A DNA stretch of 64,000 nucleotides from a virus (IMGVR_UViG_3300025000_000065:32001-96000), one strand, 5' to 3'; positions 42,345 through 63,313 are shown, counted from the stretch's first letter. Translations and numbers: made by a program. Notes: generated by a model from the letters alone, not told the origin.

Positions 42345-43121
42345 TTATCCAAAACCATATAATGAAAGTAAAGTTCCTGCTCTAAAATTGTATCGAGTTG
42401 AATATGTTCCACCTGTTATATACGCTCTAATCCTAGTTATAGGAACAGTGTTTTTCCAAACACCATTTATAATAGAAGATTGTCCAGAAACACTTGAAAA
42501 AATAGAGGATGAAAATCCCATTGCTGTTTTGTACAATCCACCAGAAGCTGAGTAATTAGGAATAATTCCAAATACGCTGCCGCTATCAGTTGCTAGATAA
42601 TTAGGAACACTTCCTATTATAACTCCTCCATTGGTATAAACTTGCAATGTATTGAGTCCTATTAAATCTCGTAACCATTGAGAAGCAATATAGTTTCCAC
42701 TATTAGCATCTCCATTAAAATCCAATCCTACATCTGCAAAAGTTCCATTTGTTCCTGCTGCTAATCCCATAATTATTAAATGTTTGAAATCTTGAGGAAT
42801 ATCAGTGAAATCAGCCTGACCCAATCCTTCAAATTCATCTATTTTTTGTAATTTTAAATTTAAGGTATCAACAGCAGAACTTAAAGTAGAAATCGAAGAA
42901 GTTATTGTGGATATATCCGAATTAATAGCGGTTATAGAACCACTAATTTGACTTCTAGCGTCCGTTAAAGAACCACTAATATCTCCTGCAAATGTATCAA
43001 TTATAGTCATATTACTAACTGATGATCCTGCTACATCATTAGTCCAACTAATAAAACTTCCACTTTGATCAGTTGTAGCGTTATACAGAATCAATCCTAA
43101 ATTTGTACTTGTAGTTGTCAT
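42345..43121 (-). CDS. Tail fibre/receptor-binding-like protein (paralog of neighbour)
   Basis: Position after Tal; Ser/Thr-rich stalk; shared C-domain ending TRYNF..GT..LYG. Confidence 0.6.
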   Translation of the reverse strand: MTTTSTNLGLILYNATTDQSGSFISWTNDVAGSSVSNMTIIDTFAGDISGSLTDARSQISGSITAINSDISTITSSISTLSSAVDTLNLKLQKIDEFEGLGQADFTDIPQDFKHLIIMGLAAGTNGTFADVGLDFNGDANSGNYIASQWLRDLIGLNTLQVYTNGGVIIGSVPNYLATDSGSVFGIIPNYSASGGLYKTAMGFSSSIFSSVSGQSSIINGVWKNTVPITRIRAYITGGTYSTRYNFRAGTLLSLYGFG

Positions 43122-43131
43122 ATTTTATTCC

Positions 43132-43920
43132 TTATTCTACACCATAAAGAGTTATTTCAGTTCCATCGACAAAATTATATCGTGTTGTATCTGATCCGCT
43201 CGAACCAAAAATTCTTATTCTGTCTATAGGACTAGCTGATTGCCAAACACCACCCGATATATTACTCTTTCTCCAAACATCCTGTGTTACAGAGCCAAAT
43301 CCAAGTGCTGATTTTTTTAAAACTTGACTTCCAGAATAATTTGGTATAACTCCAAAAACAGAACCACCATATCCATAATTATCACTTCCAGAAACACTAC
43401 TTAAAATTAAATGACCATTAACATCATAATAAGAAAGTGTTTCAGTAGGTGCTGGTATTGTAGAGCCTGATCTTTCCCAATTTACACTTATGTAACTTGA
43501 AGATGTTGAGACTCCATTAAAATCGATTCCGATAAAAGAAAACATTCCTGGACTTTGAGATGCAGCATTTCCCATTAAGATTAAATGTTTATAATCTTGA
43601 GAAATTGAACTGAAATCGGCTTGTCCAGATCCACTAAAAATACCAAGTATTTCAAATCTGCTAACGGTATCAGTTATTTGAGATCCACTTGCTTCGACTT
43701 GAGCAGAGGCACTTGTTATAGAACCCGATATAGACAAATCAGAACCCGAATAGCCGGTAATTAAATTAGTAATATTTAATACTAATTGTCCTGAAAAAAT
43801 ATCAATTTTGGTCATATTACTATCGAATATTCCATTCATCTGTTTTCTTAGTTCATCAAACCCTATATCTCCATCGGATTTTATATTATATGTAAATAAA
43901 TTTAAATTAGTTGTAGACAT
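43132..43920 (-). CDS. Tail fibre/receptor-binding-like protein
   Basis: Paralogous to 42345; 8 SGS motifs. Confidence 0.6.
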   Translation of the reverse strand: MSTTNLNLFTYNIKSDGDIGFDELRKQMNGIFDSNMTKIDIFSGQLVLNITNLITGYSGSDLSISGSITSASAQVEASGSQITDTVSRFEILGIFSGSGQADFSSISQDYKHLILMGNAASQSPGMFSFIGIDFNGVSTSSSYISVNWERSGSTIPAPTETLSYYDVNGHLILSSVSGSDNYGYGGSVFGVIPNYSGSQVLKKSALGFGSVTQDVWRKSNISGGVWQSASPIDRIRIFGSSGSDTTRYNFVDGTEITLYGVE

Positions 43921-43921
43921 A

Positions 43922-44371
43922 TTAAACTCCACTTTCAATTATTAAGTCAAATGTTATAAAATTTATTCCTTCAGGTAAAATTCCAGATGATGGACTTCCG
44001 CTAGGCAATGTGTGATTTACAACATTTAAATCAGATAAAATTTTTAATGATAAATTAGAAAACATTAATGGATCATAGTATTTTAAAATTCCGGTTCTAA
44101 CAACATGATCCTTTCCATAAAAATATAGAGTATTATTGCTACAAGCCGATATGTCAAAAAATAACCTTTCTAAATCTTCTGGCTGATCAATTAACAACGT
44201 ACTTCCGCTAGGCAATGTATGGTTTATGGTGCTTAATGCAGCAAGGGTTTTTAATGATAAATTAGAAAACATCAATGGATCATAATATTTTAAAATTCCA
44301 GTTCTAACAACATGATCAGTTAAGGAAATATATAAATTCATACTCGCAGAAGTAGAAATTGGAGTAGCCAT
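43922..44371 (-). CDS. Small tail-associated protein with internal 39-aa duplication
   Basis: DHVVRTGILKYYDPLMFSNLSLK..NHTLPSGS occurs twice. Confidence 0.6.
   Translation of the reverse strand: MATPISTSASMNLYISLTDHVVRTGILKYYDPLMFSNLSLKTLAALSTINHTLPSGSTLLIDQPEDLERLFFDISACSNNTLYFYGKDHVVRTGILKYYDPLMFSNLSLKILSDLNVVNHTLPSGSPSSGILPEGINFITFDLIIESGV
43994..44317. repeat. 117-bp imperfect direct repeat, period 207 bp
   Basis: 43994-44110 and 44201-44317. Confidence 0.85.
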
Positions 44372-61565: not shown

Positions 61566-61569
61566 ATTA

Positions 61570-62841
61570 TCACCATGCTCCCTTTAATTCAATACTCAGA
61601 TTTTTAGTAATAGATCCACTAGAAGTAAGAGTTAATATTAATGGATAATCTAAGAACATTTCATTATTTTTTATAGAAAAATTATTTCCATCTATTTGAG
61701 TAAGAGTATATTTTGAATCAGGAACATTTTTGTCATATAGAGAAATAGAAAAAGTATCTGCTTGCAAAACATCATTTTGATATAAACTAACAGTATAATC
61801 TTCTGTATCTCCCTCTAAAATATATCTATCACTAGGAGTTATTCTAATATCACTTTCAATGATAGCACTAGACGAAACAAGAGAAACAGTATCATATACA
61901 CTTGAATTATCCTCTAAATAAGATGTAATTACACAAGAACCAGTGGATAAAATATTTACAACACCACTTCCTGAAACACTTGCAACACTACATGAACTTG
62001 TAGTATATAAAACATCTTTACTAATTATCAATTCGTTTAATGTAACCACACTTTCTAATTTAAAGCTATCTCCAATTCCACCATAAATAGCTGAAGGAGA
62101 AGTAACCAATGAAAAGACAATTTTATTAGCATCTGCAATTCCATTTGTTAAATCATCTGTATCTTCATTCACGAGGCTTTTCCCTAAAACAAGTTCCATA
62201 ACTGTCGATGTATCATTATCAACACTAGTGTTATTCAAATAATTTTTAACTCCACCTCCATAAACACGATAGCACATCCAATTATTTTCATTTCCAAATA
62301 AGAATCTTTGATTTTCTTTTATTTTATTTGTTCTACTATTTTGTTGTGCAAATATATGAATTGTACCTTCGGGCGTAATTGGATCAGTTGTGTTATTGTT
62401 GGGAGAAGCAATCTTATAATCAATTACACATGGTTCTTCATAAATGATTCCATTTTGATCAGTCCATCGTAAAACATTATTACATCTTCTCGCTAATGCT
62501 GTTACAGTAATTGATTTTACGACATTCACATTTGTTACAATCCAATAATTACTATCAAAATAATATTTATAACCAAGTCCAACAGTATGATCAGATTTAA
62601 ATAATAATTGTTTAAAATCATCACTTAATTTCATTCCAGTATCATTTGATATTGCGGTTGTGACTCTTGCATCCACATCAACTAAAGATCCAGATGAAAA
62701 AACAGTTTCCTCTTGAATGGTATAAACATTTGGAGAGTTATAAAAATCAGCATCCAAAAAAGAATTAAAACTGTTTCTCCACCCTGTATTTGGAGGATAT
62801 GCATTTATTGGAGATCCAGATAAAAAATATTTATATGTCAT
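61570..62841 (-). CDS. Head-closure/adaptor protein with Ig-like C-terminal domains
   Basis: YWIV, RRCNNVLRW, NQRFLFG, TDDLTNGIAD. Confidence 0.6.
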   Translation of the reverse strand: MTYKYFLSGSPINAYPPNTGWRNSFNSFLDADFYNSPNVYTIQEETVFSSGSLVDVDARVTTAISNDTGMKLSDDFKQLLFKSDHTVGLGYKYYFDSNYWIVTNVNVVKSITVTALARRCNNVLRWTDQNGIIYEEPCVIDYKIASPNNNTTDPITPEGTIHIFAQQNSRTNKIKENQRFLFGNENNWMCYRVYGGGVKNYLNNTSVDNDTSTVMELVLGKSLVNEDTDDLTNGIADANKIVFSLVTSPSAIYGGIGDSFKLESVVTLNELIISKDVLYTTSSCSVASVSGSGVVNILSTGSCVITSYLEDNSSVYDTVSLVSSSAIIESDIRITPSDRYILEGDTEDYTVSLYQNDVLQADTFSISLYDKNVPDSKYTLTQIDGNNFSIKNNEMFLDYPLILTLTSSGSITKNLSIELKGAW

Positions 62842-62851
62842 AGTTATTCTC

Positions 62852-63313
62852 CTAATATGCTGAAAAATCCTGGTCAAGCCAAGCATTCCACATATCCGCA
62901 TCTTTTAATTTATAATTCATTAATTTTTGACTAATTTCAGATCTCTTACTATTGTACAACTGTTGTTTTTCCCTTAAATTTTGTGCATTAGAATGAATTT
63001 TAAAATCTCTATCTTGTATAAAATTATTCATCTGCAAAATATCTTGAACAGTTTTTTGCAGCCAAAACAATATCATTATCTCAGCTAACAGGTTTTTATT
63101 CTTTTGAGTTAAAGTTTCAGTAAAACTTTGTGTAGTTGTAGAATATTCTAAATCTTGATCACAAACATCAAACATATCTATTGAAAAGAGTAGCCAAGGC
63201 TCTAAATAAGTATTTAAGGCTGAACTTCCAGAAGAATTATAAACCGCTGTTAATCTATAATCTTCATTTAAACTTAAAAACAAATCAAAAACATCTTCAG
63301 CAGAAGTTCCCAT
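62852..63313 (-). CDS. Head-tail adaptor protein
   Basis: GGAGG RBS; DYRL, LAEIM..W, DFKIHSNAQNL. Confidence 0.6.
   Translation of the reverse strand: MGTSAEDVFDLFLSLNEDYRLTAVYNSSGSSALNTYLEPWLLFSIDMFDVCDQDLEYSTTTQSFTETLTQKNKNLLAEIMILFWLQKTVQDILQMNNFIQDRDFKIHSNAQNLREKQQLYNSKRSEISQKLMNYKLKDADMWNAWLDQDFSAY

Follow-up and report, generated by a model that had tools for sequence, protein, structure and literature searches.

In flagellin O-glycosylation islands, Ser/Thr residues on exposed domains of a self-assembling filament protein are glycosylated in the cytoplasm. Among phages, only a few mycobacteriophages are, to our knowledge, known to glycosylate their own virions, and we know of no acceptor motif defined there. 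Here we describe the tripeptide Ser-Gly-Ser (SGS) in the virion proteins of an uncultured phage that also encodes a set of glycosyltransferases (GTs). The stretch of DNA analysed, called the window (IMGVR_UViG_3300025000_000065:32001-96000; 64,000 nucleotides), comprises bases 32001-96000 of a 111,969-bp viral genome with 28% G+C. This genome is denoted G000, and G001 and higher numbers denote related or compared viral genomes (IMG/VR); gene positions are those of the window. An earlier note on the window had put forward SGS as a selected acceptor motif, with which the phage would coat its tail and neck in a possibly methylated, heptose-containing glycan. Our data support selection for the SGS motif in a particular subset of the virion proteins. 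That it is the acceptor motif for O-glycosylation of these proteins is our best reading, and we offer it tentatively.

For mycobacteriophages Che8, Corndog and Myrna, two papers (PMC12363180 and PMC12619734, both citing Freeman et al., 2023) describe phage-encoded GTs proposed to decorate, in the cytoplasm, structural proteins of the phage itself; the glycans sit on C-terminal stretches of capsid and tube subunits. G000 likewise encodes its own GTs (one with a GT-A fold, three GT2 and one GT4). A further likeness is that the mycobacteriophage tail tube is modified near its C-terminus and that a conserved SGS lies 14 residues from the end of the tube-like protein of G000. The two cases differ in that the motif is spread here over at least 14 tail, fibre and neck proteins, is missing from the probable capsid protein and is known from sequence alone. 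The GT-A and GT4 proteins have no match, at the level of sequence, to the mycobacteriophage GTs (Che8 gp110/Corndog gp38), and both the host group and the phage lineage are others.

With the flagellin islands the phage system has in common soluble enzymes and, as we propose, a structural protein modified before assembly. The giant GTs of those islands differ from the phage GT-A, which is a gene on its own, with two GT2 genes and a GT4 gene, each separate, after it. Neither a TPR domain nor a flagellin gene turned up in the phage proteins scanned, although no search was aimed at either. The earlier note had also invoked the autotransporters AIDA-I and TibA, modified by BAHT enzymes (AAH, TibC), which resemble our case in the O-linked sugar on serines, the beta-rich surface protein and the heptose pathway. 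This analogy fails because no GT9 (Glyco_transf_9) or BAHT-type heptosyltransferase match was found among the cluster proteins; the 406-aa GT-B protein is GT4-like, the kinase is HddA-like (GDP-heptose branch) rather than HldE (ADP-heptose branch), and the heptose genes are dispensable for the SGS pattern, as seen in G006. Another parallel is the GDP-D-glycero-alpha-D-manno-heptose pathway of S-layer and capsule glycans, given that GmhA-like and HddA-like genes are adjacent in G000 and that its short-chain dehydrogenase/reductase (SDR) and methyltransferase genes could tailor a heptose; here the difference is that GmhB and HddC types were undetected and that the GmhA and HddA matches lie far below curated cut-offs. 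The Ser-Gly context of proteoglycan xylosylation, the remaining comparison of the earlier note, has acidic flanks, the opposite of the charge-depleted flanks of SGS. A full-text literature search retrieved no paper describing Ser-Gly-Ser as a bacterial or phage O-glycosylation site.

For its terminase, G000 shows 41% identity with Thomasclavelia phage TR-TP1 and 37% with SPbeta yonF, and the genome also carries a portal, a split tape measure, Dit, a Tal-like protein, an endolysin and a YonO-like 946-aa protein (phrog_8308; 24% identity to the TR-TP1 gp3 region). Because of the SPbeta/TR-TP1-like terminase together with the portal, tail genes and YonO-like protein, G000 is, judged by its genes, an uncultured SPbeta-like siphovirus. 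It resembles the SPbeta-like phages (Spbetavirus; Thomasclavelia TR-TP1/TP2) in its terminase, its YonO-like RNA polymerase, its large two-arm siphovirus genome and the presence of introns or homing endonucleases in essential genes, and differs from them in that they have neither GT2/GT4 genes nor SGS enrichment. The + strand of G000 carries the replication/metabolism arm and the - strand the late arm, which extends past both ends of the window.

Over-representation of SGS in one class of virion proteins

Open reading frames (ORFs) were called by a simple longest-ORF rule, and "late" protein sets were defined by strand and position. Within the window, the late proteins hold 30 SGS over nine proteins, and the nine per-protein counts of the earlier note (Table 1) were all reproduced exactly; the pattern proved stronger than the note had stated. 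The + strand arm, for which about three had been stated, holds exactly three (methyltransferase 26019, ORF 26707 and polymerase 28436). Over the whole genome, 45 SGS are found in 46 late ORFs (13,733 aa) and four in the 117 other ORFs (19,678 aa). Shuffling of residues within each protein gave an expectation of 7.1 +/- 2.6 for the late set (z 14.7) and of 3.6 for the early proteins, which hold four. SGS is the most over-represented tripeptide of the late set, the runner-up having a z of 6.7. Shuffles confined to blocks of 30, 15 and 8 residues raised the expectation to 8.6, 9.5 and 11.2, respectively, and no more than 23 SGS arose in any of 1000 shuffles; SSG (21) and GSS (14), of identical composition, are much scarcer in the late proteins. 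The proposal that SGS is under selection is thus borne out both by composition-controlled shuffles and by the rarity of SSG and GSS. A chance or composition effect, by which SGS would simply follow from Ser/Gly-rich tail proteins, has in its favour that the SGS-bearing proteins are indeed rich in these residues (S 9-17%, G 5-12%), but it is refuted by the shuffles (local maximum 23 vs 45 observed; z 11-20 in each of four late sets, in all of which SGS is the foremost tripeptide); we regard it as effectively excluded and as the least probable account of all. The codons at the sites are mixed (AGT/AGC/TCN for Ser, GGN for Gly), so the signal lies at the protein level and a DNA-level signal as its cause is ruled out. 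Paralogy or internal repeats were rejected as well, since the SGS-bearing proteins include one paralogous pair only (42345/43132, 39% identity; proteins are named by their first coordinate), site contexts are diverse and the sites occur in at least 14 protein families.

The over-representation is confined to one class of proteins. Summed over G000, G001, G002 and G006, the Dit, Tal, two fibre, tube-like and small and large neck or decoration-like proteins hold 117 SGS vs 14.8 expected, and the tape measure, portal, probable capsid, terminase, 604-aa head-region protein and YonO-like polymerase together hold three vs 4.6 expected. The absence of SGS from the tape measure, asserted in the earlier note, was found in both exons in G000, and the count is zero in G001, G002 and G006 also. 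In the tube-like protein the position of the single SGS is kept in G000, G001 and G002. The best matches of the 707-aa protein 59442 are a 1466-aa protein with 14 SGS (G002) and a 266-aa protein with two (G001).

Seven further genomes of the clade, whole or nearly whole, were compared (G001, G002, G003, G006, G007, G021 and G022). In six of them the terminase is 33-66% identical to that of G000, the G003 fragment having no terminase, and each has 27-62 proteins in common with G000; G006 is a complete genome (direct terminal repeats). SGS was counted 50 times in the late proteins of G001 (7.4 expected), 39 in those of G002 (8.4 expected) and 20 in those of G003 (2.6 expected). Whole-genome counts were 76 for G006 (15 expected), the strongest signal in the clade, 18 for G007 (5.4 expected), 60 for G021 (15.9 expected) and 54 for G022 (12.6 expected). 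SGS ranks first or second among all tripeptides in G001, G002, G006, G021 and G022, and in the non-late proteins of these ranked genomes it occurs at expectation. Four SPbeta-like records served as outgroups (TR-TP1, phi3T, MT835469 and CP067347). None has an SGS excess (late-arm observed/expected 0.4-1.9) and none has a GT2 or GT4 anywhere in its record, as had been expected of relatives lacking the GTs.

Conservation, context and structure of the sites

In pairwise orthologue alignments, 46% (G001) and 28% (G002) of the G000 sites are still SGS at the same column, compared with 11% and 14% of tripeptides generally. Other sites are lineage-specific, and the density is 5-8 times above expectation in every genome. 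Site conservation above background, combined with turnover at a steady density, therefore indicates purifying selection on sites together with turnover in which the number is maintained. Metagenomic homologues of fibre protein 43132 (37-57% identity) illustrate both: several SGS positions are conserved, in the contexts FSGSGQ, RSGS, IPNYSGS and GSSGS, and further SGS occur at new positions in the N-terminal helical part. In being class-specific, present in many families, subject to turnover and limited to the clade, SGS bears the hallmarks of a short linear motif that a trans-acting factor reads; its occurrence in at least 14 families with one paralogous pair points to such a factor.

The flanks were analysed at 200 SGS sites in four genomes. 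Charged residues (D, E, K, R, H) make up 4-14% at positions -3 to +2 vs 24% in the background, and 4-11% at -1 to +2. Position +2 holds T, I or V at 51% of the sites and a charged residue at 4%, and position -1 favours S, T, V or I. The related tripeptides SAS and TGS are about 2-fold enriched, far below SGS, and SGT, SNS, STS and SDS are at expectation. The one SGS-bearing protein that was modelled, 43132 (AlphaFold2, AF2; predicted local distance difference test, pLDDT, 69), has an N-terminal helical region followed by a C-terminal beta-sandwich, and a Foldseek search of this model against the PDB gave no significant match. Within the sandwich its SGS fall in loops and at the ends of strands; the others occupy a loop between helices or the helices that are poorly modelled. 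The surface loops foreseen in the earlier note are therefore matched, to the extent of this one predicted structure, by sites at strand ends and loops.

These features could also arise if SGS were a structural or assembly motif, a tight turn leading into a beta-strand and spread through beta-rich proteins, with the GTs acting elsewhere. The preference for T, I or V at +2 and the depletion of flanking charge are what a turn running into a strand typically shows; in the 43132 model the sites lie at strand ends, several positions of the fibre family are conserved, site conservation is above background (46% vs 11%), and unrelated phages with homologous GTs mostly have no SGS excess. A motif driven by the fold, however, should not end at a clade boundary that matches GT presence. 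The homologous or analogous structural proteins of the four outgroups, Ser/Gly-rich fibres included, are not enriched, which also led us to reject SGS as a plain property of protein folds; moreover, SGS recurs in at least 14 unrelated families, its sites turn over at constant density, and SSG and GSS are 2-3 times rarer. We consider the structural account unlikely, but one to be taken seriously.

Alternatively, SGS might be the target of another modification (serine phosphorylation, acylation or a cross-link) made by another phage or host enzyme. SGS does act like a short linear motif under trans-acting selection and many conserved genes of the clade have no assigned function; against this, annotation, as far as it extends over the genome, revealed neither a kinase nor another protein-modifying enzyme, and the GTs are the only conserved candidate protein-modifying enzymes that were found. 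We give this possibility little credence.

Glycosyltransferases, sugar genes and their relatives

Sugar-gene families were assigned by Pfam and NCBIfam, which gave two SDRs, three GT2, a GT4-like protein, a methyltransferase and GmhA-like and HddA-like proteins and so confirmed the sugar toolkit of the earlier note, and structure prediction added the 309-aa GT-A protein (Table 1). Across the clade genomes examined, what is held in common is the GT-A, a single GT2 or a pair of them, the GT4 and a neighbouring tyrosine recombinase gene; G021 and G022 came to light by their GT-A homologues, and their other sugar genes are outside this count. A search of the six other clade genomes apart from G022, all the complete ones among them, found the GT-A in each. 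The GT4-like protein is the best-conserved GT, with 39-51% identity at clade depth and 91% in the close relative G003. The tyrosine recombinase adjoins the GT4 in G000, G001, G002, G003 and G006 (35-89% identity), even where the other sugar genes differ, and was not found in the G007 fragment. In G006 the common genes are contiguous in one block. Identity across the clade is about as high for the GT genes as for the phage core genes.

The remaining sugar genes behave differently. G006, which is complete and the richest in SGS, has neither GmhA nor HddA, nor does it have the SDRs or the methyltransferase, so that these genes are accessory in some members and do not form the counterpart of the motif. 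The same ground, 76 SGS in G006 without these genes, led us to reject heptose as the key sugar. No GmhB-type phosphatase (PF13242) and no HddC-type nucleotidyltransferase (PF00483) was detected in the whole genome, and hence at most two of the four GDP-heptose steps are phage-encoded; no adenylyltransferase or NTP_transferase was found in the genome either, and no family could be matched to the 197-aa ORF that follows the HddA-like gene. The emphasis that had been laid on a heptose-containing, methylated glycan is thus not upheld.

Table 1. Positions in the window of sugar-related, virion and other genes of G000 (SGS, number of Ser-Gly-Ser tripeptides)
Feature	Position	Strand	Family or match	SGS	Remarks
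SDR, dTDP-glucose 4,6-dehydratase-like	3068-4072	+			Accessory
Pyrimidine-dimer DNA glycosylase	4391-4810	+	PF03013		
SDR, GalE-type epimerase-like	6788-7735	+			Accessory
GT-A-fold glycosyltransferase, 309 aa	7999-8928	+	No Pfam match		AF2 pLDDT 89
GT2	8909-9751	+	PF00535, E 1e-28		
GT2	9727-10554	+	PF00535, E 3e-32		40-44% identity across clade
GT4-like (GT-B), 406 aa	10952-12172	+	PF13692, weak match		Homologues carry PF13692/PF00534
Tyrosine recombinase	12248-13138	+	PF00589		
246-aa ORF	14677-15417	+	Weak language-model lead to nucleotide-diphospho-sugar transferases only		
Methyltransf_24-type methyltransferase	15429-16055	+			Accessory; not in G006
Third GT2	16036-16857	+			Accessory
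GmhA-like SIS isomerase	16867-17406	+	TIGR00441, E 1e-17, 64 bits vs cut-off 209		Accessory
HddA-like GHMP kinase	17475-18464	+	NF049969, E 2e-40, 139 bits vs cut-off 600		Accessory
AAA_24 protein, 697 aa	20475-22568	+	AAA_24; LAGLIDADG_3		
IMPDH/GMP-reductase-family protein	33545-34543	+	PF00478		
Fibre or receptor-binding-like protein A, 258 aa	42345-43121	-		4	G001/G002 orthologues 6 and 4 SGS
Fibre or receptor-binding-like protein B, 268-aa ORF	43132-43938	-		8	Database form 262 aa
Tail-tip protein, 149 aa	43922-44371	-		2	Repeat INHTLPSGS present twice
Tal-like minor tail protein, 706 aa	44733-46853	-	phrog_6211	2	SGS in C-terminal part
Dit, 263 aa	46855-47646	-	PF20195/PF20753, phrog_33	1	Orthologues 1-3 SGS, at other positions
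Tape measure	47708-53113	-		0	Two exons, 51854-53113 and 47708-50374
HNH/AP2-like ORF	50600-51709		phrog_323, phrog_1891		
Integrase-like gene and RuvC-like resolvase	53134-54594	-	phrog_1, phrog_36816 (integrase-like)		
Tail-tube-like virion protein, 341 aa	57015-58040	-	phrog_2729	1	
707-aa protein	59442-61565	-	Family unassigned	7	
Virion protein, 443 aa	61570-62901	-	phrog_5251/16444	4	Orthologues 8, 4 and 3 SGS
171-aa protein	62852-63367	-		1	SGS conserved

The position of the GTs on the replication arm, with a dNMP-kinase-like gene and nucleotide-metabolism genes, would suit a role in glycosylating the phage DNA (hypermodified bases of the T4 or SP10 type). We judge this very improbable and in effect excluded: the genome has no thymidylate-synthase or hydroxymethylase family gene (no ThyA-family hydroxymethylase, PF00303), four or five GTs plus tailoring enzymes far exceed the known DNA glucosylation systems, and SGS would be left unexplained. 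The GTs might instead modify host wall teichoic acid, another cell-wall glycopolymer or flagellin (superinfection exclusion or lysogenic conversion), with SGS unrelated or recognised in some other way. Two tyrosine recombinases suggest a temperate phage, the teichoic-acid-modifying phage enzyme TarP, a soluble GT-A, is among the fold matches, the cellular relatives of the GT-A sit in flagellin loci, and the accessory sugar genes differ between clade members, as is usual for surface glycans. The common GTs, on the other hand, are conserved as deeply as core genes over 33-66% terminase identity, unlike typical conversion genes; the cluster has no flippase, polymerase, priming transferase or transmembrane protein, and the strong, clade-limited SGS signal would go unexplained. 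In a simple hydropathy scan no protein of the sugar cluster (window 3-19 kb) had a hydrophobic segment, and no flippase or polymerase was seen there. Membrane-linked serotype conversion of the Gtr/Wzx type was accordingly rejected, there being no transmembrane protein in the cluster, and a host-structure target in general we hold to be improbable.

An exhaustive profile-free search with the GT-A domain gave 2503 homologues, 420 of them at E<=1e-30. The approximately 270-residue domain is 35-47% identical to domains within proteins of 800-3700 aa, many of which also hold several GT2 domains, a GT4 domain, TPR repeats and in some cases a methyltransferase, arranged in the order of the phage genes. 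A flagellin gene lies within 10 kb in 14 of 80 bacterial GT-A loci. In Geomonas edaphica (contig 316692-330495) the flagellin gene starts 3.6 kb beyond the end of a 3045-aa GT gene, with MotA/B-like and hook-associated-like genes nearby, and a Brocadia genome has three giant GTs within its flagellar region. The flagellin neighbourhood of these homologues suggests a protein substrate and, judging from such gene context, that the cellular GT-A family works in the cytoplasm on flagellin. Modification of virion proteins would call for chemistry of this sort. The giant multi-GT proteins in the Geomonas and Brocadia flagellar regions are 1190-3045 aa long; one starts with a GT-A domain and at least two contain one. 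Matched by no Pfam model, these proteins form a large candidate family of flagellin-glycosylation enzymes.

Among other phages, a tblastn search of 50,697 GenBank phage records with the GT-A and GT4 found no homologue except in one 735-kb megaphage and no mycobacteriophage match. Eight unrelated phages with GT4 homologues at 26-34% identity were examined and SGS is raised in three, G011, G012 and G015, where it ranks 3rd, 6th and 11th among tripeptides genome-wide. In G011 (IMGVR_UViG_3300014613_000020), an unrelated 99-kb phage with 46% G+C, the GT4 homologue lies among putative structural genes (bases 1-24500 and 95000-98979), which hold 22 SGS vs 5.2 expected, a point in favour of the acceptor-motif reading. 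A gene present only in the SGS-rich unrelated phages was sought and none was found. The 20-kb flanks of 74 other viral GT-A loci contain mostly non-structural genes and are hence uninformative on SGS.

Several side observations concern other tripeptides, the host and the rest of the gene content. The same structural genes of G011 hold seven SGC vs 0.5 expected. SSS is in excess in the unrelated phages G029 (144 vs 17 expected) and G026 (142 vs 39 expected), which suggests long poly-serine tracts in some proteins. Two short contigs, DHGE01000164.1 and DHGE01000112.1, binned as the metagenome-assembled genome "Deferribacterales bacterium UBA4806", encode GT-A proteins 74-77% identical to that of the phage; they are probably phage contigs of this clade and are the sole hint of a host. 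No prophage copy of fibre protein 43132 was found among 185,579 genomes searched. The two ORFs of the tape measure (419 and 888 aa) are separated by about 1.5 kb with an HNH/AP2-like ORF, which looks like an intron with a homing endonuclease; the TR-TP1 tape measure likewise contains HNH genes. The integrase-like gene and the RuvC-like resolvase lie between the tape measure and the tail-assembly genes, and the former is 72% identical in G002 and 66% in G006, well above its neighbours. The AAA_24 protein (698 aa in G003) is only 356-357 aa long in G001 and G002. The extra part, in which residues 248-310 form a LAGLIDADG_3 domain, is probably an in-frame homing-endonuclease insertion, either an intein or one of another kind. 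The phage also encodes a pyrimidine-dimer DNA glycosylase and an IMPDH/GMP-reductase-family protein, and its nucleotide genes include a 5'-nucleotidase, a dNMP-kinase-like protein and a ribonucleotide reductase.

SGS as a candidate O-glycosylation sequon

We ranked O-glycosylation first because the soluble GTs are the only conserved trans-acting candidates that were found and because their nearest cellular relatives appear to be linked to flagellin. The fuller acceptor motif would be [S/T/V/I]-S-G-S-x-[T/I/V] with uncharged surroundings, and it would be exposed at loops and the ends of strands in the virion proteins that face outwards, namely Dit, Tal, two fibres, the tube C-terminus and neck or decoration-like proteins. 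The soluble GTs of the replication arm (the 309-aa GT-A, one or two GT2 and the GT4) would be the modifying enzymes, attaching sugar in the cytoplasm to one of the motif's serines, either ahead of assembly or in the course of it, in parallel with flagellins, which are glycosylated before export. The GmhA-like and HddA-like proteins, the two SDRs, the methyltransferase and the third GT2 may vary the outer sugars in G000 and its nearer relatives, possibly with a heptose derivative. The action of the GTs on virion proteins, SGS as the recognised element, the chain-starting GT and the identity of the glycan are all matters that we infer. That SGS is a true sequon of a phage-encoded cytoplasmic O-glycosylation system, related to flagellin-glycosylation enzymes and acting on tail tip, fibres, tube and neck at about 45-75 sites per proteome, is plausible, if somewhat short of probable.

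A number of results weigh against O-glycosylation. The T, I or V at +2 and the few nearby charges fit a plain turn-then-strand motif as well. The clade forms a single lineage in the gene-sharing comparison, so that a single evolutionary event, with no independent contrasts, underlies the co-variation of GT presence with SGS enrichment. The flagellins beside the cellular GT-A homologues are not SGS-rich (6 vs about 5 expected); SGS is ordinary in five of the eight unrelated phages with GT4 homologues (G008, G009, G010, G013 and G014), and none of five unrelated phages with a 24-31% identical GT-A (G023-G026 and G029) is enriched (z 0-2.9). The fold matches of the GT-A, of which GnT-I, POMGnT1, SpsA and TarP are the nearest structures by Foldseek, are generic (TM ~0.45), and no GT is specifically similar to any characterised protein O-glycosyltransferase. 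Finally, the probable major capsid protein, identified by gene position and phrog_4088 only, has no SGS in G000, G001, G002 or G006.

Even if glycosylation is the wrong explanation, a 6-8 fold selection for a tripeptide in one class of virion proteins, maintained over deep divergence, still needs explaining. If it is right, no acceptor motif for bacteriophage virion glycosylation would have been defined before SGS, and the case would lie outside the phages of Actinobacteria. Were SGS a sequon, glycosylated virion proteins could be predicted from sequence alone, phages would have borrowed flagellin-type cytoplasmic glycosylation enzymes, and three or four soluble GTs with a three-residue tag would form a compact enzyme-plus-tag pair for bacterial glyco-engineering. 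The finding would also have implications for the means by which phages protect tails and fibres against recognition by the host or the environment.

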